NCBI GenBank assembly: GCA_030390025.1
Contig: JASTWF010000321.1
Span: forward strand, 372,001 to 436,000
Origin: Squalus acanthias
Lineage: Eukaryota
DNA: 64,000 nucleotides
Reading direction: 5' to 3'
The notes under the pieces were generated by a model. The model ran no database searches and was not told the DNA's origin. It saw nothing but the letters and a program-made list of their open reading frames with translations. This document shows positions 1 through 60,139 of this stretch, one piece after another (the stretch's first letter is position 1; each line of letters opens with the position of its first letter). The position numbers and the translations under genes are program-made.

Positions 1-567
1 CCTGAATTACATGCTCAACTCTCTGGAAGGGAATGTGGACCCACGATCTTCTGACTCAGAGGTGAGAGTGTTACCAACTGAGCTACAGCTGACACATGGT
101 TCTGGAGTTAGGTTCTGGAATACCACACTTGCCCTTGGTTTAATGTGTAATATATGTGGGCAGAACAAACGAAGAACAGAGACAGGATGAGTTGTTAGTC
201 AAGGTGCTTGTTTACTAGGCCAGAGCGAACTGAGCATGCTCATACTGGACCATGTGACAAATCATGTGATAATACATTACATAATGAAAACATCGACTCC
301 TTCCTATCGCCCAAAGAGTGTCCCAAGGAATTAGGGAGTAAATTTAACGTAAATTCAAAGGCCACAGCACCACATGGTGTGTGAGGAAGAGAGACAGGCA
401 GAAGAAAGAAAAAAACCAACAGGGTTAGCAAAGTAAACTGTGTCATTCTCTATGGTTTGGGATTTACGGGTGTCAGCTTAGCTCGGATCAGAGCGCACAA
501 TGTAGGCCATGTAAGAATATCAATATTTTTTTGCATTACTTTTGTTTCTAACAAAGACAAAAAAGTA

Positions 568-2552
568 ATCAAGAAACGGCTGAGTGCACTAGATCCAGCA
601 AAGGCTATGGGCCCCGACAATGTCCTGGCTGTCGTGCTGAAGACTTGTGCTCCAGGACTAGCCGCCCTTCTAGCCAAGCTGTTCCAGTACAGCTACAACA
701 CTGGCATCTACCCGACAATGTGGAAAATTGCCCAGCTATGTCCTGTCCCCCAAAAAAAAGGATAAATCCAACCCAGCCGACATTTTTTTAAATTAATTCA
801 TGGGATGTGGGCATCGCTGGCAAAGCCAGCATTTATTGCCCATCCCTTACTCACCAATAACCTGCTCATCAATGCTCAGTTTAGGTTCTGCCAGGACTAC
901 TTGGTTACAGACCTCATTACAACCTTAGTCCAAACACGGACAAAAGAGCTGAATTCCAGAGGTGAGGTGAGAGTGACTGCCCTTAACAGCAAAGCAGCAT
1001 TTGACGGAGTGTGGTATCAAGGAGTCCTAGTAACATTGAAGTCAATGGGAATCAGGGGGAAAACGCTCCACTGGCTGGAGTCATACCTAGTACAAGGGAA
1101 AATGTCAGGCATGACCTACCTTTCACAAATCCATGCTGGCTCACTTTGATCAACTAAACATTTTCAAGGTGTTCAGTCACCCTATCCTTAATTACAGACT
1201 CTAGCAATATCCCGACAACAGATATTAGGCTAACTGATCTATAATTCCCTGGTTTCCCTCTCTTGCCACTCTTAAATAGCGGAGTGACATGCATAATTTT
1301 CCAATCTAAAGGGACAATTCCTGAATCGAGAGAACTTTGGAAGATTATAGTTAGGGCATCTGCAATGTGCTCACCTACTTCCTTTAAAACCCTGGGATGG
1401 AAACCATCTGGTCCTGGGGATTTGTCACTCTTTAGTGCCATTATTTTCTTCAGTACTGTTAATTTACTTACGTTAATTTTATCGAGTCCCTGTCCCCGAT
1501 TCAATATTAGTTTCTTTGGGATTTCCAGCATGCTATCCTCTTCTACTGTAAATACTGTAGAATGGAAGATTGCTGTGGTTGTTGGAGGTCAATCATCTCA
1601 GCCCCAGGACATCGCTGCAGGAGTTCCGCAGGACAGTGTCCGAGGCCCAACCATCTTCAGCTGCTTCATCAATGACCTTCCCTCCATCATAAGTTCAGAA
1701 GTGGGGATGTTCACTGATGACTGCACAGTGTTCAGTTCCATTCGCAACTCCTCAGATAATGAAGCAGTCCATGCCCGCATGCAGCAAGACCTGGACAACA
1801 TTCAGGCTTGGGCTGATAAGTGGCAAGTAAGAGTCGCACCACACACGTGCCAGGCAATGACCATCTCCAAAAAGCGAATGTCTAATCAACTCCCCATGAC
1901 ATTCAATGGGATTACCATCGCCAAATCCCCCACCATCAACATCCTGGGGGTCACCATTGACTAGAAACTTAACTGGACCAGCCACATAAATACTGTGGCT
2001 ACAAGAGCAGGTCAGAGGCTGGATATTCTGTGGCGAGTGTCTCACCTCCTGACTCCCCAGAGCCTTTCCACCGTCTACAAGACACAAGTAAGGAGTGTGA
2101 TGGAATACTCTCCACTTGCCTGGATGAGTGCAGCTCCAACAACACTCAAGAAGCTCAACACCATCCAGAAAAAAACAGCCCCCTTGATTGGCACCCCATC
2201 CACCACCTTAAACATTCACTCCCTCCACCACCAGCGTACCGTGGCTGCAGTGTGTACCACCTACAGCTGCAACTTGCCAAGGCTTCTTCGACAGCACCTC
2301 CCAAACCCGCGACCTCTTCCGCCTATGAAGGACAATGGTTCTCCTCCAAGTCACGCATCATCCTGACCTGGAAATATATCGCCGTTCCTTCATCGTCGCT
2401 GGGTCAAGCTCCTGGAACTCCCTCCCTAACAGCCAGATGGACTGCAGCAGTTCAAGAAGGCGGCTCACCACCACTTTCTGAAGGGCAATTAGGGATGGGC
2501 AATAAATGCTGGCCTTGGTGGCGACGCACACATCCCAGGAACAATAAAAAAA
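568..2552 (+). mobile_element. Degenerate LINE (CR1/L2-type RT, 'family B') 3' fragments, interrupted by an inverted CR1 piece at ~1101-1557
   Basis: RT motifs KAMGPDN..VLKTCAP, WKIAQ, GVPQDSVRGPTIFSCFINDL, MFTDD and YKTQVRSVMEYS are spread over several frames with stops; 3' tail near 2540. Confidence 0.85.
1101..1557 (-). mobile_element. CR1 LINE ORF2 fragment
   Basis: KSPGPDGFHPRVLKEV...WKIMHVTPLFK..GNYRSVSLISVVG. Confidence 0.85.
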
Positions 2553-3797
2553 AACACTTCTCTGCGTTGAATTTTATCTGTCATGTGTCTGCCCATTCCA
2601 TCAGAGTGTCAATGTCTTCTTAAAGTCTATTGCTGTCTTCCTCGCTGTTTACTATATTTCCAAGTTTCGTGTCATGTGCAAATTTTGATATTGTGCACTG
2701 TACCCCCAAGTCCAAATCATTAATGTATATCAAAAACAGCAGTAGTCCCAGTATTAAACCTTGGGGAAAGCCACTGTATACCTCCCTCCAGTCCGAACAA
2801 CAGCCATTCACCACAACTCTGCTTTCTATCCTTTAGCCAATTTTGTATCCATGTTGCTACTGCCCCTTTTATCCCATGGGCTTCAATTTTGATAAAAAGC
2901 CGAATATGTGGTACTTTATCAATCACCTTTTGAAAGTCCATGTACACAACATCAACTGCACTGCCCTCATCCAAACTCTCCGTTATCTCATCAAAAAATT
3001 CAATCAAGATAGCCAAACACAATTTGCCCTTAACTAATCTGTGCTGGCTCTCCTTTATTAGCCCACACTTGCCCATTTTCTCCCGAATTATTATTTCTAA
3101 AAGCTTCCCCACCACCGACGTTAAATTGACTGGCCTATAATTGCCAGGTTTATCCTTCTCCCCTTTTTGAACAAGGGTGTAACATTTGCAATCCTCCAGC
3201 CCTCTGGCACCACCCCTGTATCTAAGGAGGATTGGAAGGTTGTGGCCAGTACCTTTGCAAAATCTACCCTTACTTCTCTCAGCTACCTAGGATGCATCCC
3301 ATCGTTCCGGGTGACTTATCCACTTTAATTACCGCCAGCCTTTCTAGTAGCTCCTCTTTATCTATTTTTATCTCATCCAGTATCACAGCATCCTCCTCGT
3401 TTCCCATAGCTTTGGCAAAGTCCTCTTCCTTGGTAAACTCTGATGCAAAGTACTCAGTTAGTACCTCCTGCCTCCACCAATAATTCTCCATTTTGGTCCC
3501 TAATCGGCCTCACTGCTCCTCTGACAACCCTTTTACTGTTAATATCCCTATAGAAGACCTTTGGATTCCCTCTTATGTTAGCCGCCTATCTATTCTCGTA
3601 CTCTCTTGGCCACTCTTATTTACTTTATCACTTGTCCTCTGTACTTTTTCTTCTCAGCCTGATTCTCGCTTGTATTATCAAGCTGACATCTGTCATGTGC
3701 CCCCTTTATCTGCTCCATCCTACTCTCTAACTCCCTAGTCATCCAGGGAGCTCTGGCTTTGGTTGCCCTCCCTTTCCCACTTGTGGGAACGTATCTA
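2553..3797 (-). mobile_element. Degenerate CR1 LINE ORF2 fragment
   Basis: [52 protein letters not shown], with frameshifts. Confidence 0.85.
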
Positions 3798-4039
3798 GGG
3801 AGGGAAAATGCTAGAATCTATTATTAAGGACGTAGTAATGCAGGGCACTTAGAAAATAGTAATATGATTGGGCAGAGTCAACATGGTTTTTGAGATGCTC
3901 CTTAAAACCTACATCATCTGTCCTTATATCTCCTCATGTGACTCGGTGCCACATTTTGTTTGATAACACTCCTGTGAAGCAAATTGGATCATTTTACTAT
4001 GTTAAAGGCACTATATAAATGCAAGTTGTTGTTGCTTTA

Positions 4040-16652: not shown

Positions 16653-18323
16653 TGTAGAATTCGCAATATTATCGCGATTTTATATAATAAGGAGGAGACA
16701 CATAGTTTCGTACAAACAGCTTTATTTCAGCAGAATGCTGTCAGGTTGTCAAAGTGGACAGAAGCATACCTGTAAAATGGCCGCCACGCCTCGTGGCAGA
16801 ACGTTCTAGACTTTCCGATAAGCAGACAAGATGGCGTTCCAATAAACATTTGTGCGAGATCGGACGAGACTCAGCACATTTGAGATAATTCACAAGACAT
16901 AATGGGTTTGCATTTTACACATAAATACTGGAATCGGTCTCCCAGGTGCGAATAAGGGCTATTGTACCAAGCGATCAAGAACCCATCCAAAGACATTAAT
17001 ATGCAAAATCCCCACGACTCTACGATGAGAGAGCCGTTTGCGGGTAGTTACAGAAAGCATTTGGAAGCCCCAAAACCCCTCCAGGGAGACTACTAGCCGG
17101 TTCCACAATGGGAGAAGTATTAACGGGTACTCAGACAGTTACAAGTATCACCGAAACCCATTAAAGACGGAGATCACCCTATACAAGAAGTTTGAGCGCC
17201 AAAACCCTGACAAAAGATAGACATTAAGATTGGGCGGGAAAAGAGGAATTGCAGCACTATAACTGTAAGGTACAACCGTCCATCTGCCTCTTGCCGCTTG
17301 CTCTTGACTTTTGGATCCTGACTCTTGCTGCTCGACTTGCTAGAAGACTTTTGAACTTTCTGATCCGCCAGGATCAACCTCGTGGCTTGCCGCGAAGATC
17401 TGTGGAGAACTGGGCTGTGAAGCCTTGAAACGGGCACACCATCCCGAGAAGTCGGTAAACGGTGTTGGAACCGAAGGCCCGAGATGAGATGAGATGAGAT
17501 GAGATGAGATGAGAAGAGAAGAAGACGACCATACGTATCGCCACGGTCAGTAAGCCCCGACCGCGCCTGTAGGTCGAATAAACACTTTTCTTGCCCAGGA
17601 AGACTATTCTTTGAGTTTTACAAACTGGCGTGAGGGCACAGGAAGACCATTCTTCGAGTTTTATCGCATCGGTGCGAGGGCACAGGAAGACTATTTTTCG
17701 AGTCGTGTCGGAACTCCGAGGACAACACAGATCTTCATGACAGCAGACGGTCCAGCCTGCTAGCCGGAGCAGAAACGAGTAAACAAGTGGGGTACAGAGA
17801 CCCCTGATCAACACGTGGGTGGTCAGGTGCTGCGGTAAAAACATCCGAGCAGAGTTTCGTAATTCTCCGAGTTATCACGAGTGGTGAGCATGAGTCTCGA
17901 TCCTACAAATCTAGTTTAGGACAGGTATTGATAGGGGAGGGTTTAAGTTTTAAGGATAATTGTAATGTGTGTCCCCTTTTACCTTTTACGATGTGTCGTG
18001 CGCTCCTCGTTTCCCTAAAATTAGTTACATAACTGCGTGTAAGATTGTACTGTCATTAATCTGTGCTTATGACATGTATTTCGTAATCTTGAATAATATG
18101 CAATAAAGATTTTCCATTTCACACTATTCAACCGGGTCTACCTGAGTTTTCTCATCATTATTGCTCTCGCACCTAAGTCCAGTGTCAGAACCGTAAGGGC
18201 GAGTGGGTCGAACCACTCACAGGTGCTTATTGCAACAAGGCTGGCCGGAGACCAGAGCAAGCAATAGTATTAGGCAACGAAGGCCTAACCCCGCACAAGC
18301 ACCACGAACCGTAACCCCTTACA
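16653..18323 (+). repeat. 5' LTR (1671 bp)
   Basis: Starts TGTAGAATTCGC, ends CCCCTTACA; homologous to 24339-28522 and, inverted, to 25481-27118; internal (GAGAT)n near 17480; AATAAA at 18102. Confidence 0.92.
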
Positions 18324-18328
18324 GAAAA

Positions 18329-18346
18329 TGGCGACCGCGGCAGGAC
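18329..18346 (+). promoter_or_regulatory. Primer-binding site, tRNA-Arg(UCG)
   Basis: TGGCGACCGCGGCAGGAC is the reverse complement of the vertebrate tRNA-Arg(UCG) 3' end GTCCTGCCGCGGTCG-CCA as I recall it; 5 nt after the LTR. Confidence 0.88.
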
Positions 18347-18381
18347 ATTGACAGCGAGAGAATAATGTGTTAGACCCTGGT

Positions 18382-20133
18382 ATGAATGGGCGAAATGTCA
18401 TGGAAGAGAGAATAGCAGATTATGTGTTTGGAAAAGTGAATTTGACTAAGAAATGGATAAGTGACCTGCTGGTTGATAAGCGTCCACTAGAGGCAGCCGA
18501 GAGGTGGACAGATAGCAAGGAACATAAAAAGGCAGTGGAGAAAGCGGTCTGGCTGATGTGCTATAAAAGATAAGTCCAAATTTCGGACCAGGTCATCTTA
18601 GCACAGGCAGCTCAGATCAAGAGTTTAGATGTGGAAATGGACGAGAAGGTCGCGGGGGGGCAGCAGCTCATCACGACTTTAAATGCGTTGCATCAAGAAC
18701 GCCAGTTAGTCGCCAACCACCATGAGGCAAAAATAGATTACCTCGAGTGCCAGGTCACTGAGGCAAAGTTAAATGAGGGCAGATTAAAGGAACGATGTGC
18801 CCGCCTAGCTGCCCAAATAAAAGTCCAGGAAGAGAGCTTAACGGGGGTTAGGGCGGCATATAAGATGGCCCTCGAGGATAAATTTCAGGGGGCCGATCAC
18901 AGCGTCTGCCAAAAAGAGATAGGGAACCTTAAAAAGGCCTTGAAGAAAGCGCACGGCATGGTGTGCCTTATCAGCCCGTCAGCACACCAGCCGCTAGTGG
19001 ATGAGGGATTTCAGAAATCCCCACCGAACAAAGCAGAGGAAGTATTAGCCACTGTGCCCTCCACGCCACCCAGCTATTCGGCAACCTGGGTGAGGGAGGA
19101 AGTGGTAGAAGTAGAGAAAGAGCCCACTGAGGTAGAAGTGAAGCCGGGACCGTTGTGTCCGGTCACGGGTATCAAGAGGGGCCCGAACAGAGACGGTGGG
19201 GCACAGGGGGATCTCCTCAACCAGCTTGTGTTGCCTCACAGCTCACACCAGCTGAGGGTTATGATCAGTCATGTACGGAAGCTGGCCGAGTCAGACGACC
19301 CTTCCGTACATTTCAGGGAAGTAGAGCAAACCGCAGCCATTAACGGCTGCGACGATGGGGAAAAAGCAAAAATGCTGTTATTCTCATTAGACAGCTCGAT
19401 CCTTCAGTGTCTCTCAGACGAGAGCAAGAGGGGAACTAATACCTATGGGGAGCTAAGAGATGAGGTCCTAGAAGTGTTGGGAATGGACGATGAAGGTCCG
19501 TTCGTTCGATTGGGACGAACAGTGCAGATGGAGGGAGAACCCCCGAAGGTTTTCGCCGACAGGCTGTGGCCAGTATACCAGCGTAGCTGCCCAGGCGCGC
19601 CAGCGCGTCACCGCATAGACGGTGTCGGTTTAACTCATTGGCTCAGGTGTATAGTAGCCAACAGTTTGCCAGCCGTCAGGGAGCAGGCCAAAGCATGGTT
19701 TGATCCCACTAACCCCGCCACTACAGAGGAGTCGGTCCTAAATCGACTCACGGTAGGGTACCGTAATACCAGGAGTACGGGAGCACGTCCCCTTAAGGGA
19801 AAGGTGCATGAGGCACGACCCGCAGCCCCGGCTCAAAAGGAGTGGCATCAGGAGGGTAACCGCGCCCCGCAGGCCAGTAATGCTTGTTACGGGTGTGGGA
19901 AGACAGGGCATTGGCGCAAGAACTGCAGGAACCCTTGGAAGGAGTCCAGGGATAAAAATCCCGCAGTCCGAGCCCAGGCGCCTATCTCCGATAGGGGAGC
20001 TAGTGCACCCATCCATCCCGATGCGATCGAATCAGTGTTGGGAGCCATGCGCACCCTCATGATTTCGCATGGAAGGGTGGCAGTTGCTACCGGCCCCACA
20101 GATGCCGCAGCCCCGTCCAACAGTACCCAATGA
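18382..20133 (+). pseudogene. gag: gag (~583 codons) with one premature TAA at 18571-18573
   Basis: ORFs 18367-18573 and 18631-20133 share a frame with a single stop between them; N-terminal coiled coil, MHR-like QMEGEPPKVFADRL (19525-19566), zinc knuckle CYGCGKTGHWRKNC (19885-19926). Confidence 0.85.
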
Positions 20134-21243
20134 CTAGAGCCCACGCAGCCTGCCTACCTGTGTCCTTTTAAAAGACACACACAGGAGGGGGTCTCTGGTA
20201 GGGAGGCCAGGTTAGAAGAGCAGGCCTTGCGGGAGGAGAACGCCCGTTTAATCGGGAAAGTAGATGGGCTGGAAGGGCAGCTTAGAGAGCAGGCCCTGCG
20301 GGAGGAGAACGCCCGCTTAATGGGAAAGTTAGACGTGCTCATGCTAGAAGCACAGCTTAGAGAGATAAAAGCAGCCTACAAGGTAGCCAGAAGCAGGGAT
20401 TTAAATCAGTGCAAACTGTATAAGCCGGGTGCACAAGGGCCAACCACAGGGGCCAAACCTGCGAGTGGGGACTCGCAGCCCCAGGTAGGGCCACAGGGCA
20501 CACAGGCAGGCAAAGCAGCTTGCATCAGGGGAGAGGACATCCTAGAAAAATGTGAGATATTTTATTGGGGTTGGGAGACAGATGAGGAAGAGTTCGAGGA
20601 GCTCGACGAAGATAGTGACACTAGCGAGGAGGAGCTGGAATCGGAGGACGAAAGGGTCGCCCCCGATTCAGGTATAGGGGAGACAGGGGCTGCAGATAGA
20701 GATCCACAAAGGGTGGAGGCCGAAGCTGCAGGTCCCGAACGCAGGGGGGCGGAGCTAGAGGAGGCGGAGCCAGCTGCTGTGGTGGGACCACAGGGCGTGG
20801 TGATGGAAGCCTCAGAGCCCGAGCCGCCCGCCTTGAACGTCTTGCCCTCGAGGGAGGTAGGGACTGCGAGTGAAGGGCCGCCTACTGGGCCAAGTAGGGC
20901 GGTGCCACAAGCTGCAGATCCCGAGTTCAGGGAGGCGGAGTCAGGGGAGGCGGAGCCAGCGACTGTGGTGGGACCACGGGTCGCCACGCTGGAAGTCTCG
21001 AAACCCGGTCCGTCAGTCCTGGAGTTCCTGCCCCCGGTAGTTCCCCGTAGGTCAAGTCGGAAACCCCAGCCCAGAAGGATATGGGTAAGTCCCCCGTATG
21101 TCCCCAGGCGTAAGTTCAAGGTCAAGGCAGCTCAGGGAGATCCCAGTCCCAGCGCAGCAGTGACAGGCTGCGGCAGATCAAAGGGAGGGGTCAATGCCCT
21201 CCCACCGTTGGGAGAAGCCTGCGGCAGCAACCGCAGAATTTGA
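20134..21243 (+). CDS. ORF X: in-frame gag read-through extension (369 aa; coiled coil, acidic tract, Pro/Ala/Glu repeats, basic tail), function unknown
   Basis: Open from the codon after gag TGA to 21243 in the gag frame; no protease/RT/RNase H/IN motifs. Confidence 0.65.
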   Translation, partial: LEPTQPAYLCPFKRHTQEGVSGREARLEEQALREENARLIGKVDGLEGQLREQALREENARLMGKLDVLMLEAQLREIKAAYKVARSRDLNQCKLYKPGAQGPTTGAKPASGDSQPQVGPQGTQAGKAACIRGEDILEKCEIFYWGWETDEEEFEELDEDSDTSEEELESEDERVAPDSGIGETGAADRDPQRVEAEAAGPERRGAELEEAEPAAVVGPQGVVMEASEPEPPALNVLPSREVGTASEGPPTGPSRAVPQAADPEFREAESGEAEPATVVGPRVATLEVSKPGPSVLEFLPPVVPRRSSRKPQPRRIWVSPPYVPRRKFKVKAAQGDPSPSAAVTGCGRSKGGVNALPPLGEACGSNRRI

Positions 21244-21540
21244 GTAGGCCGCCCTGGGAACAGGCGGCACTGTACAGTTATTAAGAAGAGTGATATGTTT
21301 AGGATGAGTTTATAAGTTTGAGTTTATAGTTTTAAATCAGGTTAAGTCGGTAGTTTAATTTTGTTAACAGAAAAAGGTAAAATGATGGGAGTTTTAGAGA
21401 TAGGAATAGTTAAAGTCTATCCAGCGCACATGTCTTCTTACGTGAGGCGAGGTCAGGGGACCCGCTCACCCTTCACAAAAGCCAGAGACTCTTGGGAGGC
21501 TGGCTACCTCATTCTATCTGATCACAGGAACCAAGGAAGG

Positions 21541-23892
21541 ATGGAACGAATTCTAGTGGTGCTCACGGCAATCGGATGTGGACTGGCCTATCGAGGCCGC
21601 ACCAAGGACGTCGTGGTGTTTGGATGCTCCGGGGACACGGCCCCCATCGCGGTGGATGGGACCGGAAGGCGAGAGGCTGAGGAGACCGCCACTTATTTCC
21701 ACAAGGGAAGGTGGCCAGGATGGCTGGGAACGAATTCAACTGAGTATTCCAGTACATCGGGTTTTGCCTACCAAGAGACTTCTTTAATGTGCCCCAAAGT
21801 GAGGATCATCGCACCCAGAGGCAGCGTCACCGTCGGCAAACGGATTTGTTTGACTTGTAGTGGGAATGTCCCATTGAGCCGATGGTGGTGGCTGCGAAAG
21901 CTGAGTAAAAACATGAGGAACTCTTCAGTCGAGTGGGAGCGACTGGGTAATAATACCCATCGGACAATTACGGGGACAAACGGACAAGTGAGAGTCTGTT
22001 GGGACAAATGGTGGGAACCGGATGAGGGAATTTATGTATGTATGTGGGGATCAAAGCACGTTTGCCCCAAAGGCATCTCCATATTTTTCATCAATCAATG
22101 GCAGGATAACGGACAGGGGATGAGGTGGGATGCGAGCACCAGGGGATGCGGAGCTCCATACTCTCCGATCCCGGTAAATGCCACTGAACTCATTACGCGC
22201 CCACGCAAAGCCCCGCCCACGATTCCGGTGGTTCTAGCTAAGGAAGAAGGGTGCCCTAAAACCAGTAAGGGACCCGGGAATGGTTTGGTACTGGTCCCCA
22301 CAGACCAGATACTATTTCAGGGGGTACATTACGCGGTGGCCTCGGTGATTTTAAATCTCACCGAGGTGCGGTTACCAGAGTGGTGCCCCAAAAAGACGGA
22401 ACAGTTATATCAGGTCCTGTTGACCAAGATGTTTAGGCAATTTTATGAGTTCGATTTCGCGGAAATTGATAAAACAAGTTTGTACACCGCACCACATGAA
22501 GTTTTGGGTCAGGTGGGGAGGCAAAGAAGGGGTGTTGTGAACGACATGTTCACTGCTTTCAATACAGGTACATCTGTGGTCAACGCTCTAGACAGCGTGG
22601 AGCTGCAGACCCAGATTAATGGTTTAAAAACACAATTAAAAAGCATTCTCACAGATGAAAATAAGGTGGTTGGGTCTGGGTTACACGAGGACCAGGCCAT
22701 GACTCTCCATTTAAAAGAAATAATATCTGAACTAGAGAAACATGCGCGTACGGTAAACGCCCTGATCAGGGAAGATCGGAATGCGTCCGATCAGGCTGCG
22801 CAGAACGATGTGTGCGTGCTTTACGGGGCGTGGTTACTGGGCGAGGGCCGCAGTAATTTGGAGGATTTAAAACAAGGTTTGGTCCCGTCCTGGATAAGTA
22901 ACAAACACCTGCAGGCGCTCCACCCTTTTCAGAACGCTTTAAGCCCGTGCCAGCTCAGACTAGCTTCAGAAGCATACCCAGTCCCCGTGGACTGCGGACG
23001 ATCAAACCATACCATCATGGGTATAGTATTACGTATGCCGGTTTTGGGCGACACAGCAAAGCCCGCCCCGGTGTATCGGGTAGAGAACATTGGTGTCATT
23101 CAGGGGGGAGCCCACATTCGCTATGCAGCGGTTCCACCTTACGTCATCCGCTGGGAGCAAACGATGACAGGTACAGATCTCTCTGGTTGTCGTGGCCGGG
23201 GAGCCCACATAATACTGTGTCCCCAGCACTTGAATGCCTTTTTAACACCGCAGTGCGGGTTCAGAACGGCTGGCGCCAAGCCCATGAATTGCACCATGGA
23301 GGCAATGGCGCAAGATCATGTGCCTCCGCAGGTAGCATACATCGGGGGTGGAACATATTGTGTTACCACTGCAGCGCAACACTACCAGCATGGAAACCGT
23401 AGCCGGTGTCCGGTGAGTGACAGCAGTTTCTGTTTTAAACCCAGGGCGGAAGCTCAAGTAGCACAACAGCGAATTGTCCCGATCCCTGAACCATCCACTG
23501 TTCATCTCACAGTAAAGGAGAATTTTACCGACTTGCAGCGATTCGTCGCGCATTTCGGATACCTCATTCCCCCTCTCCCTGAACACCTCACCAAACTTTT
23601 GAAAGCCGTCGCGGTATCGCAAAAACATTTTTACACACTAGAGCAAAAGACTGTCGAGATAGGGACAGAAATTCTGGACATAGTAATTCCACCATGGTGG
23701 GATCTGTTCGCCAACATTGAAGTCCCTTCCTGGATCAGAATAACCTCCCACATTTTAGTTGTATGCCAAGTGTTTATTGTGATATACTTATTGGTTGTGC
23801 ATTGTAAGAGAGGCAAACGCCTCACCAAGAACGAAAACATGGGAGAGTGGCGAGAACGTTACGTGTGCATGCACGATGAAAGCACCGCGTAA
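21541..23892 (+). CDS. env: Envelope glycoprotein, 783 aa: signal peptide, Ig-like domain, F-type class I fusion protein, TM
   Basis: MERILVVLTAIGCGLA signal; ICLTC..WWW..DEGIYVC; RQRR|GVVNDMFTAFNTGTSVVNALD (22519-22530); heptad repeat; Cys-rich region; TM ILVVCQVFIVIYLLVV; splice acceptor ..tctgatcacag| at 21527. Confidence 0.85.
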   Translation: MERILVVLTAIGCGLAYRGRTKDVVVFGCSGDTAPIAVDGTGRREAEETATYFHKGRWPGWLGTNSTEYSSTSGFAYQETSLMCPKVRIIAPRGSVTVGKRICLTCSGNVPLSRWWWLRKLSKNMRNSSVEWERLGNNTHRTITGTNGQVRVCWDKWWEPDEGIYVCMWGSKHVCPKGISIFFINQWQDNGQGMRWDASTRGCGAPYSPIPVNATELITRPRKAPPTIPVVLAKEEGCPKTSKGPGNGLVLVPTDQILFQGVHYAVASVILNLTEVRLPEWCPKKTEQLYQVLLTKMFRQFYEFDFAEIDKTSLYTAPHEVLGQVGRQRRGVVNDMFTAFNTGTSVVNALDSVELQTQINGLKTQLKSILTDENKVVGSGLHEDQAMTLHLKEIISELEKHARTVNALIREDRNASDQAAQNDVCVLYGAWLLGEGRSNLEDLKQGLVPSWISNKHLQALHPFQNALSPCQLRLASEAYPVPVDCGRSNHTIMGIVLRMPVLGDTAKPAPVYRVENIGVIQGGAHIRYAAVPPYVIRWEQTMTGTDLSGCRGRGAHIILCPQHLNAFLTPQCGFRTAGAKPMNCTMEAMAQDHVPPQVAYIGGGTYCVTTAAQHYQHGNRSRCPVSDSSFCFKPRAEAQVAQQRIVPIPEPSTVHLTVKENFTDLQRFVAHFGYLIPPLPEHLTKLLKAVAVSQKHFYTLEQKTVEIGTEILDIVIPPWWDLFANIEVPSWIRITSHILVVCQVFIVIYLLVVHCKRGKRLTKNENMGEWRERYVCMHDESTA

Positions 23893-24326: not shown

Positions 24327-24338
24327 AACAGGAGGGAC
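24327..24338 (+). promoter_or_regulatory. Polypurine tract
   Basis: AACAGGAGGGAC directly before the 3' LTR TG. Confidence 0.7.
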
Positions 24339-24506
24339 TGTAGAATTCGCAAAATTATCGCGATTTTATAAAAATAAGAAGGAGACATAAAGTTTCGTAT
24401 AAACAGCTTTATTTCAGCAGAATGCTGTCAGGTTTCAAAACGGACACAAACAGCCTGTAAAATGGCCGCCACGCCTCGTGGCAGAAAGTTCTAGACTTTC
24501 AGTAGG

Positions 24507-25413
24507 CATAGAAACATAGAAACATAGAAAATAGGTACAGGAGTAGACCATTCGGTCCTTCGAGCCTGCACCGCCATTCAATGCGTTCATGGCTGAACAT
24601 GCTACCTCAGTACCCCATTCCTGCTTTCTCGCCATACCCCTTGATCCCCTTAGTTGTGAGTATTATATCTAACTCCCTTTTGAATATATTTAGCGAACTG
24701 GCCTCAACAACCTTCTGTGGAAGAGAATTCCATAGATTCACCACTCTCTGGGTGAAGAAGTTCCTCCTCAGCTCAGTCCTAAATGGCTTCCCCTTAATCC
24801 TTAGACTGTGACCCCTGGTTCTAGTTTTCCCTACCATTGGGAACATTCTGCCCGCATCTAATTTGTCTAAACCAGTCAGGATTTTAAATGTCTCTATAAG
24901 ATCCCCCCTCATTCTTCTGAACTCCAGAGGATACAAGTTCAGTTGACCCAATCTTTCTTGATATGTCAGTCCGGCCATCCCAGGAATCAATCTAGTGAAC
25001 CTTCGCTGCACTCCCTCAATAGCAAGAATGTCCTTCCTTAAGTTAGGAGACCAAAACTGCGCACAATACTCCAGGTGTGGCCTCACCAAGGCCCTGTACA
25101 ACTGTAGCATCACCTCCCTACTCCTGTACTCAAATCCCCTTGCTATGAAGGCCATCATTCCGTTTGCTTTCTTGACTGCCTGCTGCACTTGCATTCCCAC
25201 CTTCAGTGACTGATGTACCATGACGCCCAGGTCTCGTTGCACGTCCCCTTTCCCTAATCTGCCACCATTCAGGTAATAGTCCGCCTCTCTATTTTTACCA
25301 CCAAAGTGGATAACCTCACATTTATCCACATTGTACTTCATCTGCCATACATTTGCCCATTCACTCAACCTGTCCAAGTCACTCTGTAGCCTCCTAGCAT
25401 CCTCCTCATTGTT
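24507..25413 (-). mobile_element. 5'-truncated CR1 inserted in the 3' LTR
   Basis: Uninterrupted RT C-terminal ORF (LQSDLDRLSEW...KGYGEKAGMGY) and (TTTCTATG)n tail. Confidence 0.92.
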
Positions 25414-25480
25414 CAGACAAGATGGCGTTCCAATAAGCATTTGTGCAAGATCGAAAAGATCCAACATGATGAGATAATGA

Positions 25481-27118
25481 TGTAAGGGATTCTGACCCTG
25501 CGTGTCTCGCAGCCTGTGAGATTCACGCGGCTCTGTGCAGCCTGTATGTCAGTGCGGGTCTAGGCCTTGTTGCCTGTTCTGGTCTCCAGCCAGTCTGGGA
25601 ACACTAGACACACCTGTGAGTGGTTCGAATCACTCTCCCTTACGGTTCTCGACACTGGACTTAGATGCGAGAGCAGTAATGGAGATGAAACTCATGTAGA
25701 CTCGGTTTGAATGGTACGAAATGGAAAATCTTTATTGCATGATACTTAAGATTATGAAATACATGTCATAAGCACAGATTAATGACAGTACAATCTTACA
25801 AACAGTTATATAGTCGATCTTAGGGAAACGAGGAACGAACGGCACATAGTAAATAGGGGCACACATTACAAATATCCTTAATCCTTAAACCCTCCCCTAT
25901 CAATATCTATCCTAAACTAGATTCGTAGGATTTCGAGACTCATGCTCACCACTCGTGATAACTCGGAGAAATTCCGAATAGCTGATCGGATGTTTTTCAC
26001 CGCAGCACCCACGTGTCAGTCAGGAGATCTCCTGGTCCCACTTGTTTACTTGCTTCTGCTGCTCCGGCTAGCAGGCTGGAACGTCTGCTGTGATGAAGAC
26101 CTGTGTTGGTTGGTTTAACAGGTACTTTCGAGCACAGTCCAGTTATATCATCGATGCGATATGTTTCGTTACAAGTTCGAAGAAGTCTTCCTGGCAAGGA
26201 AAACTTGGCTAATCGACCTACAGGCGCGGTCGGGATTTACTGACCGTGGCGATGGATATGGTCTTCCTCTCTTCTCATCTCATCTCATCTCATCTCATCT
26301 CATCTCGGGCCTTTGGTTCCGCTGCCAGTTACCAACATAGGTCTTCGTTACGCGACACGAGGTAGATCCGAACGGATCAGAAAGTTCAACAGTCCTTTTC
26401 AAAAGAGACAACAGGCAAGCAGGAGCGAGCCCAACTACGAGTACACAGGAGCAGCCACGAGGTTACGAATCGATCGGATAAGAGAAAGATGGACGGTTTG
26501 GAGCCTGCAATTATAGTGCAAAAATCTTCCGTTTCCCGCCCAACTATAATGTCCATTCTTTTGTTTAAGGTCTGGCGCTCAAAATGTCTTGTATGGGTGA
26601 TCTCCGTTCTTAATGGGTTTCGGGGCTACTCGTAAATGTCTGAGTACCTGTTAATATTTCTCCCATTGTTAAATCGGTCGGCGTTCTCCCTGGAGGGGTT
26701 TTGGGGCTTCCAAGTGTCCTGTATAACTACCTGCTAACGGCTCTCTCATCGTAGAGTCGTTGGGATTTTACATATTAATGTCTTTTGGATGGGCCCTTGA
26801 TTACTCGGTACAATGGCTTTCCTTTGTACCTGGGAGACCGATTTCAGTATTTATGTGTATACTGCAAACCCATAATGTCTCGTGTATTATCTTCACTGTG
26901 CTGAATCTTAATCGATCTTGCACAAATGTTTATTGGAACGCCATCTTGTCTGCCTGTTGAAAAGTCTAGAATGTTCTGTCACGAGGTGCGGCGGCCATTT
27001 TACAGGCTGCTTGTGTCCACTTTAAACCTGTCAGCATTCTGCTGAAATAAAAGCTGTTTGAACGAAACTCTGTGTTTTCTCCTTATTAATAAAATCGCGA
27101 TATATTGCGAATTCTACA
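25481..27118 (-). mobile_element. Solo LTR of a related subfamily, inverted inside the 3' LTR
   Basis: Reverse strand TGTAGAATTCGC...CCCTTACA, 1638 bp; flanked by ATGA/GTGA (4-bp TSD with one mismatch). Confidence 0.9.
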
Positions 27119-28522
27119 GTGACAAGACGCGATGGGTTTACATTTTAAACATGAATACTGAAATCGGTCTCCCAGGTGCAAACAAGGGCTATTGTACTGA
27201 GCGATCAAGGACCCATCCAAAGACATTAATATGCAAAATCCCCACGACTCTACGATGAGAGAGCCGTTTGCGGGTACTTACAGCAAGCATTTGGAAGCCC
27301 CAAAACCCCTCCAGGGAGACTACTAGCCGGTTCCACAATGGGAGAAATATTAACGGGTACTCAGACAGTTACAAGTGTCACCGAAACCCATTAAAGACTG
27401 AGATCACCCTATACAAGAAGTTTGAGCGCCAAAACCCTGACAAAAGATAGACATTAAGATTGGGCGGGAAAAGAGGAATTACAGCACTATAACTGTAAGG
27501 TACAACCGTCCATCTTTCTCTTGCTGCTTTGACTCGCTGGAAGGCTGCTGAACTTTTATTCTCTTGCCTGACGGCTCTGCACTCTGATCCGCTAGGATCA
27601 ACCTCGTGGCTTGCCGCGAAGATCTGTGGAGAACTGGGCTGTGAGGCCTGGAAGCGGGCGCACCATCCCGAGGGGTCGGTAAACGGAGTTGGAACCGAAG
27701 GCCCGAGAGGAGATGAGATGAGATGAGATGAGATGAGAAGAGAAGAAGACGACAATACGTATCGCCACGGTCAGTAAGCCCCGACCGCGCCTGTAAGTCG
27801 AATAAACACTTCTTTGAATTCTATCGGCTACTCCACAACTGGCCCAGGAAGACCCTTCTTCAAGTTCTATCGAATCGGTGTAGGGCACAGGAAGACTTTT
27901 TTTTGAGTAGTATCAGAACTCCAAGGGCAACACAGATCTTCATGACAGCAGACGGTCCAGCCAGCTAGCCGGAGCAGAAACGAGTAAACAAGTGGGGTAC
28001 AGAGACCCCTGATCAACACGTGGGTGGTCAGGTGCTGCGGTAAAAACATCCGAGCAGAGTTTCGGAATTCTCCGAGTTATCACGAGTGGTGAGCATGAGT
28101 CTCGATCCTACAAATCTAGATTAGGACAGGTATTGATAGGGGAGGGTTTAAGTTTTAAGGATAATTATAATGTGTGTCCCCTTTTACGATGTGTCGTGCG
28201 CTCCTCGTTTCCCTAAAATTAGTTTCATAACTGTGTGTAAGATTGTACTGTCATTAATCTGTGCTTATGACATGTATCTCGTAATCTTGAATAATATGCA
28301 ATAAAGATTTTCCATTTCGCACTATTCAACCGGGTCTGCCTGAGTTTTCTCTCCATTACTGCTCTCGCACCTAAGTCCAGTGTCAGAACCGTAAGGGCGA
28401 GTGGGTCGAACCACTCACACGTGTCTAGTGTTACCAGGCTGGCTGGAGACCAGAACAGGCAACAAGGCCTAACCTCGCACTAGCACCCAGGCTAAGCACA
28501 GAGCCACAGGTCACCCCTTACA

Positions 28523-34828: not shown

Positions 34829-37800
34829 CTCCTGACTCCCCAAAGACTTTCCACCATCTACAAGGCACAAGTCAGGAGTGTGATGGAATACTTTCCACTT
34901 GCCTGGATGAGTGCAGCTCCAGTAACACTCAAAAAGCTCAACACCATCCAAGACAAAGCAGCCCGCTTGATTGGCATCTCATCCACCACCTTAAACATTC
35001 ACTCCCTCCACCACCTTAAACATTCACTCCCTCCACCGCCAGCGTACCGTGGCTGCAGTGTGTACCATCTACAAGATGCACTGCAGCAACTCATCAAGGC
35101 TTCTTTGACAGCACCTTCCAAACCCGCGACCTCTACCAGCTAGAAGGACAAGTGCAGGAGACGCATGGGAACACCATCACCTTCAAGTTCCCCTCCAAGT
35201 TACACACCATCCTGATTTGGAGATATATCACTGTTCCTTCATCGTCGTTGGGTCAAAATCCTGGATCTCCATCCCTAACAGCACTGTGGGAGTACCTTCA
35301 CCACAAGGACTGCAGCGGTTCAAGAAGGCGGCTCACCACCACCTTCTCAAGGGCAATTAGGGATGGGCAATAAATGCTGGCCTTGCCAGCGATGCCCACA
35401 TCCCAGGAACAAATAAAAAAAACCTCTTCTCTGCGTTGAATTTTATCTGTCATGTGTCCGCCCATTCCATTAGCCTGTCAATGTCTTCTTAAAGTCTATT
35501 GCTGTCTTCCTCGCTGTTTACTATATTTCCAAGTTTCGTGTCATCTGCCAATTTCGAAATTGTGCACTGTACCCCCCAAGTCCAAATCATTAATGTATAT
35601 CAAAAACAGCAGTAGTCCCAGTATTAAACCTTGGGGAAAGCCACTGTATACCTCCCTCCAGTCCGAACAACAGCCATTCACCACAACTCTGCTTTCTATC
35701 CTTTAGCCAATTTTGTATCCATGTTGCTACTGCCCCTTTTATCCCATGGGCTTCAATTTTGATAAAAAGCCGAATATGTGGTACTTTATCAATCACCTTT
35801 TGAAAGTCCATGTACACAACATCAACTGCACTGCCCTCATCCAAACTCTCCGTTACCTCATCAAAAAATTCAATCAAGATAGCCAAACACAATTTGCCCT
35901 TAACTAATCTGTGCTGGCTCTCCTTTATTAGCCCACGCTTGCCCATTTTCTCCCGAATTATTATTTCTAAAAGCTTCCCCACCACCGACGTTAAACTGAC
36001 TGGCCTATAATTGCCAGGTTTATCCTTCTCCCCTTTTTGAACAAGGGTGTAACATTTGCAATCCTCCAGCCCTCTGGCACCACCCCTGTATCTAAGGAGG
36101 ATTGGAAGGTTGTGGCCAGTACCTTTGCAAAATCTACCCTTACTTCCCTCAGCTACCTAGGATGCATCCCATCGTTCCGGGTGACTTATCCACTTTAATT
36201 ACCGCCAGCCTTTCTAGTAGCTCCTCTTTATCTATTTTTATCTCATCCAGTATCACAGCATCCTCCTCGTTTACCATAGCTTTGGCAAAGTCCTCTTCCT
36301 TGGTAAACTCTGATGCAAAGTACTCAGTTAGTACCTCCTGCCTCCACCAATAATTCTCCATTTTGGTCCCTAATCGGCCTCACTGCTCCTCTGACAACCC
36401 TTTTACTGTTAATATCCCTATAGAAGACCTTTGGATTCCCTCTTATGTTAGCTGCCTATCTATTCTCGTACTCTCTTGGCCACTCTTATTTACTTTATCA
36501 CTTGTCCTCTGTACTTTTTCTTCTCAGCCTGATTCTCCCTTGTTATTATCAAGCTGACATCTGTCATGTGCCCCCTTTATCTGCTCCATCCTACTCTCTA
36601 ACTCCCCAGTCATCCAGGGAGCTCTGGCTTTGGTTGCCCTCCCTTTCCCACTTGTGGGAACGTATCTAGGGAGGGAAAATGCTAGAATCTATTATTAAGG
36701 ACGTAGTAATGCAGGGCACTTAGAAAATAGTAATATGATTGGGCAGAGTCAACATGGTTTTTGAGATGCTCCTTAAAACCTACATCATCTGTCCTTATAT
36801 CTCCTCATGTGACTCGGTGCCACATTTTGTTTGATAACACTCCTGTGAAGCAAATTGGGTCATTTTACTATGTTAAAGGCACTATATAAATGCAAGTTGT
36901 TGTTGCTTTAGTGGTGTTGGTTGAGAGATTAACATTGGCCGGGATACCGTGAGAGCTCCCCTGCTCTTTTTCGAATAGTGCCATGGGATCTTTTATATCC
37001 ACCTGAGAGGGGAGATGAGGAGTTGGTTTAATGTCTCATCTGAAAGACGGCACCTTTAACAGTGTAGCACTCCCTCAGTACTGCACTGGAGTGTCAGCCT
37101 GAATTACATGCTCAACTCTCTGGAAGGGAATGTGGACCCACGATCTTCTGACTCAGAGGTGAGAGTGTTACCAACTGAGCTACAGCTGACACATGATCCT
37201 GGAGTTAGGTTCTGGAATACCACACTTGCCCTTGGTTTAATGTGTAATATATGTGGGCAGAACAAACGAAGAACAGAGACAGGATGAGTTGTTAGTCAAG
37301 GTGCTTGTTTACTAGGCCAGAATGAACTGAGCATGCTCATACTAAACCATGTGACAAACCATGTGATAATACATTACATAATGCAAACATCGACTCCTTC
37401 CTATCGCCCAAAGAGTGTCCCAAGGAATTAGGGAGTAAATTTCACGTAAATTCAAAGGTCACAGCACCACATGGTGTGTGAGGAAGAGACACAGGCAGAA
37501 GAAGGAAAAAAAACAACAGGGTTAGCAAAGTAGTCTGTGTGATTGTCTATGGTTTGGGGTTTACGGGTGTCAGCTTAGCTCGGATCAGAGCGCACAATGT
37601 AGGCCATGTAAGAATATCGATATGTTTTTGCATTACTTGTGTTTCTAACAAAGACAAAAAAGAAATCAAGAAACGGCTGAGTGCACTAGATCCAGCAAAG
37701 GCTATGGGCCCCGACAACATCCTGGCTGTCGTGCTGAAGACTTGTGCTCCAGGACTAGCCGCCCTTCTAGCCAAGCTTTTTCCAGTACAGCTACAACACT

Positions 37801-39178
37801 GGCATCTACCCGACAATGTGGAAAATTGCCAAGGTATGTCCTGTCCACAAAAAAAAGGACAAATCCAACCCAGCCAACTTTTTCTTTTATTCATTCATGG
37901 GATGTGGGCGTCGCTGGCAAGGCCAGCATTTATTGCCCATCCCTTACTCACCAATAACCTGCTCATCAATGCTCAGTTTAGGTTCTGCCAGGACCACTTG
38001 GTTACAGACCTCATTACAACCTTAGTCCAAACACGGAAAAAAAAACGGATTCCAGAGGTGAGGTGAGAGTGACTGCCCTTGACATCAAGGCAGCATTTGA
38101 CGGAGTGTGGTATCAAGGAGTCCTAGTAAAATTGAAGTCAATGGGAATCAGGGGGAAAACTCTCCACTGGCTGGAGTCATACCTAGTACAAGGGAAAATG
38201 TCAGGCATGACCTACCTTTCACAAATCCATGCGGGCTCTCTCTGATCAACTAAAAATGTTCAAGGTGTTCAGTCACCCTATCCTTAATTATAGACTCTAG
38301 CAATTTCCCGACAACAGATATTAGGCTAACTGGTCTATAATTCCCTGGTTTCCCTCTCTTGCCATTCTTAAATAGCGGAGTGACATGCATAATTTTCCAA
38401 TCTAAAGGGACGGTTCCTGAATCGAGAGAACTTTGGAAGATTATAGTTAGGGCATCTGCAATGTGCTCACCTACTTCCTTTAAAACCCTGGGATGGAAAC
38501 CATCTGGTCCTGGGGATTTGTCACTCTTTAGTGCCATTATTTTCTTCATTACTGTTAATTTTATCGAGTCCCTGTCCCCGATTCAATATTAGTTTCTTTG
38601 GGATTTCCAGCATGCTATCCTCTTCTTCTACTGTAAATACTGTAGAATGGAACATGGTTGTGGTTGTTGGAGGTCAATCATCTCAGCCCCAGGACATCGC
38701 TGCAGGAGTTCCGCAGGACAGTGTCCGAGGCCCAACCATCTTCAGTTGCTTCATCAATGACCTTCCCTCCATCATAAGTTCAGAAGTGGGGATGTTCACT
38801 GATGACTGCGCAGTGTTCAGTTCCATTCGCAACTCCTCAGATAATGAAGCAGTCCATGCCTGCATGCAGCAAGACCTGGAAAACTTTCAGGCTTGGGCTG
38901 ATAAGTGGCAAGTAACAGTTGCGCCACACAAGTGCCAGGCAATGAATATCTTCAAAAAGCGAATGTCTAACCAACTCCCCATGACATTCAATGGGATTAC
39001 CATCGCCAAATCCCCCACCATCAACATCCTGGGGGTCACCATTGACTAGAAACTTAACTGGACCAGCCACATAAATACTGTGGCTACAAGAGCAGGTCAG
39101 AGGCTGGGTATTTTGTGGCGTGTGTCTCACCTCATGACTCCCCAAAGCTTTTCCACCATCTACAAGACACAAGTAAGG
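34829..39178 (+). repeat. Segmental duplicate of the block at 1-5425
   Basis: 35410-37370 matches 2545-4490 and 37098-39178 matches 1-2091, including non-repeat sequence and identical TE junctions. Confidence 0.9.
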
Positions 39179-40285: not shown

Positions 40286-40632
40286 GTTGCATTTCTCCTA
40301 ACCAATAAAAACAGTGATAATAATAATTGAAATATTCCTAAAAAGTGCGTCTTGTCATTTGGGCCTGCAAGCCCCGGCCATATTACTTTCTCAAAACATT
40401 CCCACATGACAGGGTCGATGGTAAATGTTATTGTCAACAGGTCATCTCACACATGTAGAATGCTGAACTATTTAGCCTAAACAATACAGTAAATCGGAGG
40501 ATGTGACGCTACGCTGTGGCCACGCCGTACCTTGAGCACTGGGCCCTGTTCTGGTCATTAAGACATCAAGGGAGTTTTTCAATACCAGGATGCACTGGAT
40601 GAGACTGATCCTTGGGGGAAAAGGACTGAATT

Positions 40633-43600
40633 TCTCCCCAGAGCCCCCTTTCCCCAGTCTCCCTCTCTCCCCGAGTCCCCATTCCCCAGTCTCCCTCTCT
40701 CCCCGAGCCCCCATTCCCCCTCTATCCCCGAGCCCCCATTTCCCAGTCTCCATCTCTCCCCGAGCCCCCATTCCCCAGTCTCCCTCTCTCCCCGAGCCCC
40801 CATTCCCCAGTCTCTCTCTCTCCCCGAGCCCCCATTCCCAGTCTCCCTCTCTCCCGAGCCCCCATTCCCCAGTCTCCCTCTCTCCCGAGCCCCATTCCCC
40901 AGTCTCTCTCTTTCTCCCCTGAGCCCCCATTCCCCAGTCTCCTCTATCTCCCCGAGCCCCCATTCCCAGTCTCCCTCTCTCCCCGAGCCCCCATTCCCCA
41001 GTCTCTCTCTCTCCCCGAGCCCCCAATCCCAGTCTCCTCTCTCCCACGAGCCCCCATTCCCCAGTCTCTCTCTCTTCCCCGAGCCCCCATTCCCCAGCTC
41101 TCCCTCTCTCCCCGAGCCCCCATTCCCCAGTCTCCCTCTCTCCCCGAGCCCCCATTCCCAGTCTCTCTCTCTCCCGAGCCCCATTCCCCAGTCTCCCTCT
41201 CTCCCCGAGCCCCCATTCCCCAGTCTCTCTCTCCCCGAGCCCCCATTCCCCAGTCTCCTCTCTCCCCTGAGCCCCCCATTCCCCAGTCTCCCTCTCTCCC
41301 CGAGCCCCCATTCCCAGTCTCTCCTCTCTCCCCGAGCCCCCATTCCCCAGTCTCCCTCTCTCCCCGAGCCCCCTATCTCCAGTCTACCTCTCTCCCCGAG
41401 CCCCCATTCTCCAGTCTCCCTCTCTCCCCGAGCCCCCATTCCCCAGTCTCCCTCTCTCCCCGAGCCCCCATTCTCCAGTCTCCCTCTCTCCCCGAGCCCC
41501 CATTCTCCAGTCTCCCTCTCTCCCCGAGCCCCCATTCCCCAGTCTCTCTCTCTCCCCCGAGCCCCCATTCCCCAGTCTCCCTCTCTCCCCGAGCCCCCAT
41601 TCCCAGTCTCTCTCTCTCTCCCCGAGCCCCCATTCTCCAGTCTCTCTCTCTCCCCGAGCCCCCATTCCCCAGTCTCCCTCTCTCCCCGAGCCCCCATTCT
41701 CCAGTCTCACTCTCTCCCCGAGCCCCCATTCCCCAGTCGCTCTCTCTCCCCGAGCCCCCATTCCCCAGTCTCCCTCTCTCCCCGAACCCCCATTCCCCAG
41801 TCTCCCTCTCTCCCCGAGCCCCCATTCCCCAGTCTCCCTCTCTCCCCGAGCCCCCATTTCCCAGTCTCTCCTCTCTCCCCGAGCCCCCCATTTCCCAGTC
41901 TCTCTCTTCCCGAGCCCCCATTCCCCGGTCTCACTCTCTCCCCGAGCTCCCATTCCCCAGTCTCCCTCTCTCCCCGAGCTCCATTCCCCAGTCTCCCTCT
42001 CTCCCCGAGCCCCCATTCCCCAGTCTCTCTCTCTCTCCCCGAGCCCCCATTCCCCAGTCTCTCTCTCCCCGAGCCCCCATTCCCAGTCTCCTCTCTATCC
42101 CCGAGCCCCCATTCCCCAGTCTCTCTCTCTCCCCCCGAGCCCCATTCCCCAGTCTCCCTCTCTCCCGAGCCCCATTCCCCAGTCTCCCTCTCTCCCCGAG
42201 CCCCCATTCCCCAGTCTCTCACTCTCCCCGAGCCCCCATTCCCCAGTCTCCCTCTCTCCCCGACCCCCATTCCCCAGTCTCCCTCTCTCCCCGAGCCCCC
42301 ATTCCCCAGTCTCCCTCTCTCCCGAGCCCCCATTTCCCAGTCTCACACTCTCTCCCCGAGCCCCCATTCCCCAGTCTCTCTCTTCCCCGAGCCCCCATTC
42401 CCCAGTCTCACTCTCTCCCCGAGCTCCCCATTCCCCAGTCTCCCTCTCTCCCCGAGCCCCCATTCCCCAGTCTCCCTCTCTCCCCGAGCCCCCATTCCCC
42501 AGTCTCTCTCTCTTCCCCGAGCCCCCATTCCCCAGTCTCTCTCTCCCCGAGCCCCCATTCCCCAGTCTCTCTCTCTCCCCGAGCCCCCATTCCCCAGTCT
42601 CTCTCTCTCCCCCGAGCCCCCATTCCCCAGTCTCCCTCTCTCCCCGAGCCCCCATTCCCCAGTCTCCCTCTCTCCCCGAGCCCCCATTCCCCAGTCTCTC
42701 ACTCTCCCCGAGCCCCCATTCCCCAGTCTCTCTCTCTCTCTCCCCGAGCCCCCATTCCCCATTCTCCCTCTCTCCCCGAGCCCGCATTCCCCAGTCTCTC
42801 TCTCTCCCCCGAGCCCCCATTCCCCAGTCTCCCTCTCTCCCCGAGTCCCCCATTCCCCAGTCTCCCTCTCTCCCCGAGCCCCCATTCCCCAGTCTCTCTC
42901 CCCCTGAGCCCCCATTCCCCAGTCTCCCTCTCTCCCCGAGTCCCCATTCCCCAGTCTCCCTCTCTCCCCGAGCCCCCATTCCCCAGTCTCCCTCTCTCCC
43001 CGAGTCCCCATTCCCCAGTCTCCCTCTCTCCCCGAGCCCCCATTCCCCCTCTATCCACGAGCTCCCATTCCCCAGTCTCCATCTCTCCCCGAGCCCCCAT
43101 TCCCCAGTCTCCCTCTCTCCCCGAACCCCCATTCCCCAGTCTCTCTCTCTCCCCGAGCCCCAATTCCCCAGTCTCCCTCTCTCCCCGAGCCCCCATTCCC
43201 CAGTCTCCCTCTCTCCCCGAGCCCCCATTCCCCAGTCTCTCTCTCTCCCCGAGCCCCAATTCCCCAGTCTCCCTCTCTCCCCGAGCCCCCATTCCCCAGT
43301 CTCCCTCTCTCCCCGAGCCCCCATTCCCCAGTCTCTCTCTCTCCCCCCGAGCCCCCATTCCCCAGTCTCTCTCTCTCCCGAGCCCCCATTCCCCAGTCTC
43401 TCTCTCTCCCCGAGCCCCCATTCCCCAGTCTCTCTCTCTCCCCGAGCCCCCATTCCCCAGTCTCTCTCTCTCCCCGAGCCCCCATTCCCCAGTCTCTCTC
43501 TCTCCCCGAGCCCCCATTCCCCAGTCTCCCTCTCTCCCCGAGCCCCCATTCCCCAGTCTCTCTCTCTCCCCCGAGCCCCCATTCCCCAGTCTCCCTCTCT

Positions 43601-59600: not shown

Positions 59601-60139
59601 AAAGCACAAATGTCAAAGTAAATGTTGTTATAAAACACATTTTGTTGTGCACTTGAGTAGTAACAAATTCAGTCTTCTGGTTATAATCATTTTATTCTTT
59701 AACTTCAGTATTAAAAGCAATTTACAACCTGAGTATTGTCACAGATAAGTGTGCGAACCTAGGCATGGGTCCTGTCTCGTACTGCTTAAACAAATGAAAA
59801 AGCTTATATTTATACACTGTTTTCTTATCAAACTGGAACTGGCATTGCCTAATATGGTAGTCTCTGGCTACAGCATAGTCCAGAGATACAAGGCTACATT
59901 TTCTTCAACATGCTGTGGTAAGCCTAACCCTTCTAGTTTCTAGACATTCTTACCATAAATAAACATATCCAAGGCTGGTTGGTTGCGAACACCAGCAGTT
60001 GCTAAGTGAAATCTGTATCTCTCTCTAACTCTATCTCTCTCTCTCTCTAATGATGCCATCCACCTTTTTTTCCTATATTCAATGAACTAAACATGAACAC
60101 CTTTCAGAAGCTGAATTAACCGAGTTCCATATGCCAACA

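Follow-up and report, generated by a model that had tools for sequence, protein, structure and literature searches.

Type II read-through, in which a UGA stop codon and its 3' context CUA precede an in-frame downstream ORF, is known from alphaviruses and from human genes carrying UGACUAG. In the available text of a 2026 review of viral read-through (PMC13517186), UGACUA is assigned to CHIKV, SINV, PSIV and host genes, the read-through given for UGACUAG is at least about 1.3%, and a downstream structure is described as only conditionally required for UGACUA. The retroviral contexts given in that text are UAG, UGAAGA, UGACGA and UGAAGU, and the term 'loki' is absent from it. In gamma- and epsilonretroviruses (MoMLV, WDSV, SSSV and ZFERV; PMC13517186, same text), an in-frame stop codon meters the C-terminal extension of Gag into Gag-Pol. 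A related arrangement is that of the mouse IAP 1-delta-1, a non-autonomous deletion derivative in which leftover pol is fused in frame to Gag, and this fusion aids retrotransposition in cis, as described in the accessible part of PMC6466679. Finally, the lokiretroviruses, a sister lineage of retroviruses, are marked by their RT grouping, a tether plus RNase H, a CGIN1-like integrase and, in some members, an SMC-like coiled coil, and their capsid is similar to the CA of MLV and Ty3 (PMC7947760, available sections). The words 'stop codon', 'readthrough' and 'read-through' do not occur in those sections, and the accessible part of a paper on a foamy-like ERV (PMC5512871) similarly holds nothing on read-through.

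Here we analyze a UGA-CUAG stop at the end of a gag frame in Squalus acanthias. The window, i.e. the whole stretch of DNA that was analyzed, comprises 64,000 nucleotides (contig JASTWF010000321.1, positions 372,001 to 436,000, forward strand). Similar to the type II sites, the stop codon is followed by the 3' context and an in-frame ORF; however, it is located at a retroviral gag end, where a stimulatory structure is unsupported. With the gamma- and epsilonretroviruses it shares an in-frame stop ahead of a C-terminal Gag extension, while the stop context is different, no pseudoknot is seen after the gag stop, and the extension is devoid of enzymes. In contrast to IAP 1-delta-1, which lacks env and has a constitutive fusion, the element in the window keeps Gag and env, and a leaky stop would ration the extension.

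Results and Discussion

The element and its parts

The element is organized as LTR-gag-X-env, lacks pol and resembles the lokiretroviruses. Two LTRs, a primer-binding-site-like stretch and a polypurine tract were identified, and only gag, X and env are located between the LTRs, as is the case for non-autonomous (pol-less) endogenous retroviruses. Protease, RT and integrase core are absent between the LTRs, and none of the three ORFs matched an enzyme family. The features are as follows:

16653..18323, + strand: 5' LTR (TGT...ACA), 92% identity to 24339-24500 plus 27122-28522
18329..18346, + strand: primer-binding-site-like stretch, assigned by its position directly after the LTR, overlapping an ATG in the gag frame
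18328..20133, + strand: gag frame with a long coiled coil, a retroviral-type capsid and one CCHC knuckle, with stops at 18349 and 18571 (frame reading, alignment, structure model)
20131..20137, + strand: UGA stop of gag followed by CUAG, predicted read-through signal (sequence; stop column common to P0001, P0004, P0005 and P0006)
20134..21243, + strand: ORF X, which extends the gag frame by 369 codons; its first ATG lies at 20320
20148..20207, + strand: stem-loop proposed in the initial annotation, arms 20148-20158 and 20197-20207, inner hairpin 20159-20179 (UGUGUC/GACACA), weakly supported
20201..20412, + strand: coiled-coil part of X with a 69-nt in-frame duplication, residues 47-93 like the Gag coil (profile comparison)
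20407..21243, + strand: probable integrase C-terminal tail (one contig of run X16, by eye)
21346..23892, + strand: env-like ORF, likely start 21541, with an RQRR cleavage site, heptads and a C-terminal membrane segment (ORF list; colinearity by eye with lokiretrovirus Env)
24330..24337, + strand: polypurine tract
24339..28522, + strand: 3' LTR in two pieces (24339-24500 and 27122-28522), with CR1-like pieces and a related LTR in inverted orientation (25529-27120) in between

The two LTRs of the element thus differ by 8%. The primer-binding-site-like stretch may correspond to tRNA-Arg. No tRNA gene was found in the window, and the available part of the lokiretrovirus supplement (PMC7947760) gave no clear match to the same primer-binding site. 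Homologous Gag models begin with MATAAG or MATTKG, and in the window (18328-18346) the primer-site-like stretch overlaps an ATG in the gag frame. The inverted LTR within the 3' LTR is more diverged (75-83%). At its break, the 3' LTR lacks about 76 nt, and no matching pair of target-site duplications was found at the element ends; thus, the two LTR ends may derive from different insertions. An identity with Troyka (PMC12440569, available text) was ruled out by the TG...CA termini of the element. For run X3, 2304 contig records cover a 2.2-kb stretch, which indicates many diverged copies, in a form from which the copy number is not derivable. The named Gag and Env homologs come from skate and sharks, with the exception of one distant Xenopus Gag.

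The likeness to the lokiretroviruses (PMC7947760, as available) comprises the layout LTR-gag-(pol)-env, a coiled coil, present in some members, ahead of an MLV-like capsid, an Env that is colinear by eye, an integrase-end-like motif, and an in-frame UGA-CUA following gag in seven sequences. In contrast, the element in the window is devoid of pol, so the likeness rests on features other than RT; its host is a cartilaginous fish, a group absent from the accessible text of that study, and its Env possesses about 240 extra N-terminal residues. In the model of Gag, a helix of 103 residues (pLDDT about 90) forms a coil that precedes the capsid, and the structure matches to this coil are generic coiled coils. 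The best match of the modeled capsid is the MLV capsid (Foldseek E 9.7e-4), and its alignment with the C-domain of the latter (Z 11.9, rmsd 2.3, 85 aligned) shows a likeness that is not specific to lokiretroviruses. Lokiretrovirus Env proteins are similar to the Mononegavirales F protein and have an RxKR site (PMC7947760, available part); the Env in the window has an RQRR site and is colinear by eye with the published proteins. Searches of Env returned no Pfam or PDB sequence match, a profile search found no solved relative, and the structure model (pLDDT 33) was unusable. With 76% identity in skate versus 56% for Gag, Env is the better conserved of the two proteins. At about 21810-22050, ahead of the F-like part, Env exhibits a Cys/Trp pattern that is immunoglobulin-domain-like by eye. 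A sawshark gene model, P0119, joins a piece of the same Env to a Niban-like protein, probably as a result of mis-joining or of an exonised insertion.

Elsewhere in the window, positions 40600-48000 are occupied by a long C-rich tandem array with a period of 32 nt and a strong strand skew, and 60100-63700 by a degenerate array with units of about 67 nt. A near-identical segment is repeated about 32.9 kb apart at 1-4000 and 35500-39000 (300-nt blocks 93-100% identical), and is a recent duplication or a young repeat.

The gag stop codon and the open frame

The gag frame is terminated on the + strand by TGA at 20131-20133 within CAA TGA CTA GAG, and the frame of X is flush with this stop. The initial annotation had noted the end of gag at CAA TGA CTA G and the open frame of 369 codons behind it, and both were confirmed: not one of 5000 dinucleotide shuffles of the X span was stop-free (mean 13.5 stops), and the remaining two + frames across the span harbor 20 and 15 stops. 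Among the 992 TGA triplets of the window, CTAG follows in four cases and CTA in twelve, which renders a chance occurrence of this context at the gag stop unlikely. A -1 slippery heptamer in the X frame near 20165 was rejected, as by eye the X_XXY_YYZ register was not matched.

Judged by alignment, the position of the gag stop is native. The terminal Gln of the skate Gags P0001, P0004 and P0005 (56-57% identical) and that of P0006 (47% identical) reside in the same alignment column as that of the Gag in the window, such that four other Gags end at this column, where the homologs give protein ends and not codons. In the Gags P0007 and P0115 (36%), the end is displaced from the stop by no more than about three columns, and three distant Gags (18-22%) end elsewhere. 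At the DNA level, data from four sequencing runs are compatible with a conservation of TGACTAG in other copies: no difference falls within 20131-20137 among the 40 of 426 differences listed, and neither does an indel or loose end among the 12 of 32 indels and 24 of 188 loose ends listed. Among the contigs listed, none bridges the gag stop by 31 letters on each side.

The two premature stops at 18349 and 18571 in the gag frame of the present copy had been overlooked in the initial annotation. Translation initiated at either of the likely starts, 18328 or 18400, would end before 20131, and full Gag-X cannot be made by this copy. Thus, all statements on read-through concern the family and not the present copy.

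Gag/pol junctions of lokiretroviruses

The accessible part of the PMC7947760 supplement covers 24 sequences and, with six junctions outside those viewed, gave seven clear gag/pol stops. All seven, from two subclades, are in-frame UGA-CUA, with TGA-CTA-G in Ofa, Pyo, Sau and Cne and TGA-CTA-A in Bsp, Dcl and Lro, and by eye all seven frames continue into pol sequence. The junction of Sau, CAA TGA CTA G, is identical to that in the window. In Bsp the frame of the stop reaches a conserved leader motif, whereas the authors begin pol in another frame, and for Cne gag carries no separate annotation. The Tfu junction reads TGN-CTA-A. Ten of the 24 sequences are annotated as continuous gag-pol; of these, Pfl was viewed, in which CTA-A follows a sense codon. 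In the same supplement, pol is annotated from downstream near-start codons. The residues past the gag stop in the window display no visible match to the lokiretrovirus pol leader in the sequences available. Where the initial annotation had proposed to look for TGACTAG before protease in autonomous relatives, TGA-CTA is indeed present in seven lokiretrovirus sequences, in part with G and in part with A as the next letter, none of them from the family in the window itself. DNA of a pol-bearing relative was not found in metagenome contigs, viral contigs or prokaryote genomes.

By analogy, these junctions are the strongest support for an inherited site. With seven of seven clear stops in the accessible supplement being UGA-CUA, we consider it rather probable that the UGA-CUAG in the window was inherited from a lokiretrovirus-like ancestor, in which it served as the read-through site for Gag-Pol, and that in intact members of the family a few per cent of the ribosomes would pass through it into X. 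According to this model, the ancestor would have made Gag-Pol through read-through of UGA-CUA, and a deletion would then have taken the enzymes while the frame was retained, leaving, as X, a short leader followed by a Gag-like coil in duplicate and by the integrase tail. Read-through would be driven mostly by the CUAG context, the proposed stem-loop being minor or accidental, and intact copies would produce a few per cent of Gag-X, a low-abundance fusion that might be carried into capsids. The initial annotation had similarly postulated a low-abundance Gag-X fusion made by the mechanism that meters Gag-Pol. The mechanism is likely to be correct, given the stop column common to four other Gags and the UGA-CUA of the seven lokiretrovirus sequences available; full fusion, however, is beyond the present copy with its two additional stops.

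Composition of X

Residues 47-93 of X match a profile of the Gag coil that was built without the row of the window (E 7e-5), and none of 1000 shuffles scored as high, which for coils is a lenient control. Pairwise, X and skate Gag showed no significant similarity (E 0.09). An acidic tract extends over about 20575-20652, and a second in-frame duplication with a period of 186 nt covers 20710-20850 and 20896-21036. In run X16, a single contig meets the window at 20407, and its upstream sequence is, by eye and in frame, similar to the last part of the C-terminal domain of integrase in the lokiretrovirus sequences available. Based on the coil profile and this join, X probably consists of a leader, the Gag-like coil in duplicate and the integrase tail, and would accordingly represent a leftover pol frame and not a new gene.

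It might be argued that the UGA-CUAG was inherited as outlined above while Gag-X is idle, X being open only as recently stranded pol sequence. Several observations are in line with this view. In the searches run X has no homolog (8000 candidates of 202-646 aa were scored), an atlas search gave no usable match, and Pfam gave only a weak coiled-coil match; parts of the frame are acidic and Pro-rich low-complexity sequence. The third-position share of the differences listed, a selected subset, is 6 of 17 for X, compared to 7 of 11 for gag and 4 of 8 for env, so that X displays no third-position excess and no sign of constraint at the protein level in this subset. The instability of the outer stem described below points in the same direction. 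However, the Gag-like coil and both duplications are in frame, the latter (69 and 186 nt) being multiples of three, and runs X9 and X16 carry compensated +1/-1 indels at 20914-20919 by which the frame of X is kept. In addition, X is free of stops although the present gag has two and the LTRs have diverged. Taken together, we regard an idle Gag-X as unlikely.

The proposed stem-loop

Another explanation would place the signal in the RNA behind the stop, with read-through driven by the specific stem-loop at 20148-20207 in an alphavirus-like manner. The initial annotation had described a stem of GCC-UG-CCUACC and GGUAGG-GA-GGC enclosing the UGUGUC/GACACA hairpin and had proposed it as a helper of read-through. 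The pairs do exist: in short windows, arms and inner hairpin together make up the fold of lowest energy, the structure starts 14 nt past the stop, and complementary stretches occur, by eye and unfolded, at some of the lokiretrovirus junctions in the accessible supplement. The fold was not confirmed to exceed chance expectation, however. For the 85 nt starting from the stop the folding z was -0.20, with 78 of 200 shuffles as good, for windows of 70-113 nt it ranged from -0.5 to -1.4, and only for 60 nt cut by hand did it reach -2.14 (12 of 300 shuffles). In 153 nt another fold wins with a z of -2.17. For 166 windows of 70 nt taken from the element, z had a 5th percentile of -2.48 and a 25th of -1.28, so that roughly 5 to 10% of these windows reach a value of -2.17. 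Within a context of 241 nt, all nine outer-stem pairs had a probability of 0.0, and six inner pairs one of 0.51-0.61. Moreover, the base at position 20201, within the 3' arm, is in nearly all of the depth and in four of four runs one that is unable to pair with 20154; no compensating change for it was present among the differences listed. There is also an overlap between the 3' arm and the beginning of the coil duplication of X, and Rfam returned no match within 18200-21600. The RNA folding that the initial annotation had suggested as a check thus gave z values from -0.2 to -2.1 with loss of the outer stem in longer context, and the proposed role as a helper is poorly supported. While some 3' structure after the gag stop is possible, the stem-loop at 20148-20207 is not supported, and we deem it distinctly improbable that it drives read-through.

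Other routes to X

In retroviruses, 3' genes are commonly expressed from spliced RNA. X might similarly be made alone, by splicing or by initiation at the internal ATG 20320, in which case the leaky context would be incidental; in-frame ATGs are in fact present at 20320, 20341 and 20803. This appears very unlikely, as 62 open codons precede the first of these ATGs in a frame that directly adjoins the gag stop, and no joint into X was listed in the one of the 22 listed runs that is guessed to be RNA (X10, consisting of contigs only and hence weak in this respect). That the TGA is a decay mutation within a formerly continuous Gag-X frame, as might be suspected from the two further premature gag stops of the present copy and the sense codon at the matching site of Pfl in the accessible supplement, is hardly credible given the end column common to four independent Gags.

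Implications

An inherited Gag-Pol read-through site, the reading that we favor, points to the route by which Pol is expressed in lokiretroviruses. The UGA-CUA signal is familiar from alphaviruses and host genes and is not among the retroviral contexts in the available text of PMC13517186. While this type of recoding is familiar, we found no description of UGA-CUA read-through at a retrovirus-like gag/pol border in the open literature, including the accessible parts of PMC7947760, PMC9040795, PMC13517186 and 10.1101/2023.10.26.564294. Gag-X may be a working protein, acting for example in cis like the fusion of IAP 1-delta-1 (PMC6466679, accessible part), or it may be a vestige. It might further be speculated, tentatively and with some doubt on our part, that lokiretroviruses meter Gag-Pol by an alphavirus-type UGA-CUA and that selection has preserved this switch in a pol-less derivative in cartilaginous fish, where it rations a new extension of Gag without enzymatic function, consisting of a second coil and an acidic integrase tail, which works in the capsid. 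If the Gag-X frame is indeed under selection, the element would represent a satellite retroelement that reuses the dosage switch of Gag-Pol for a non-enzymatic protein.
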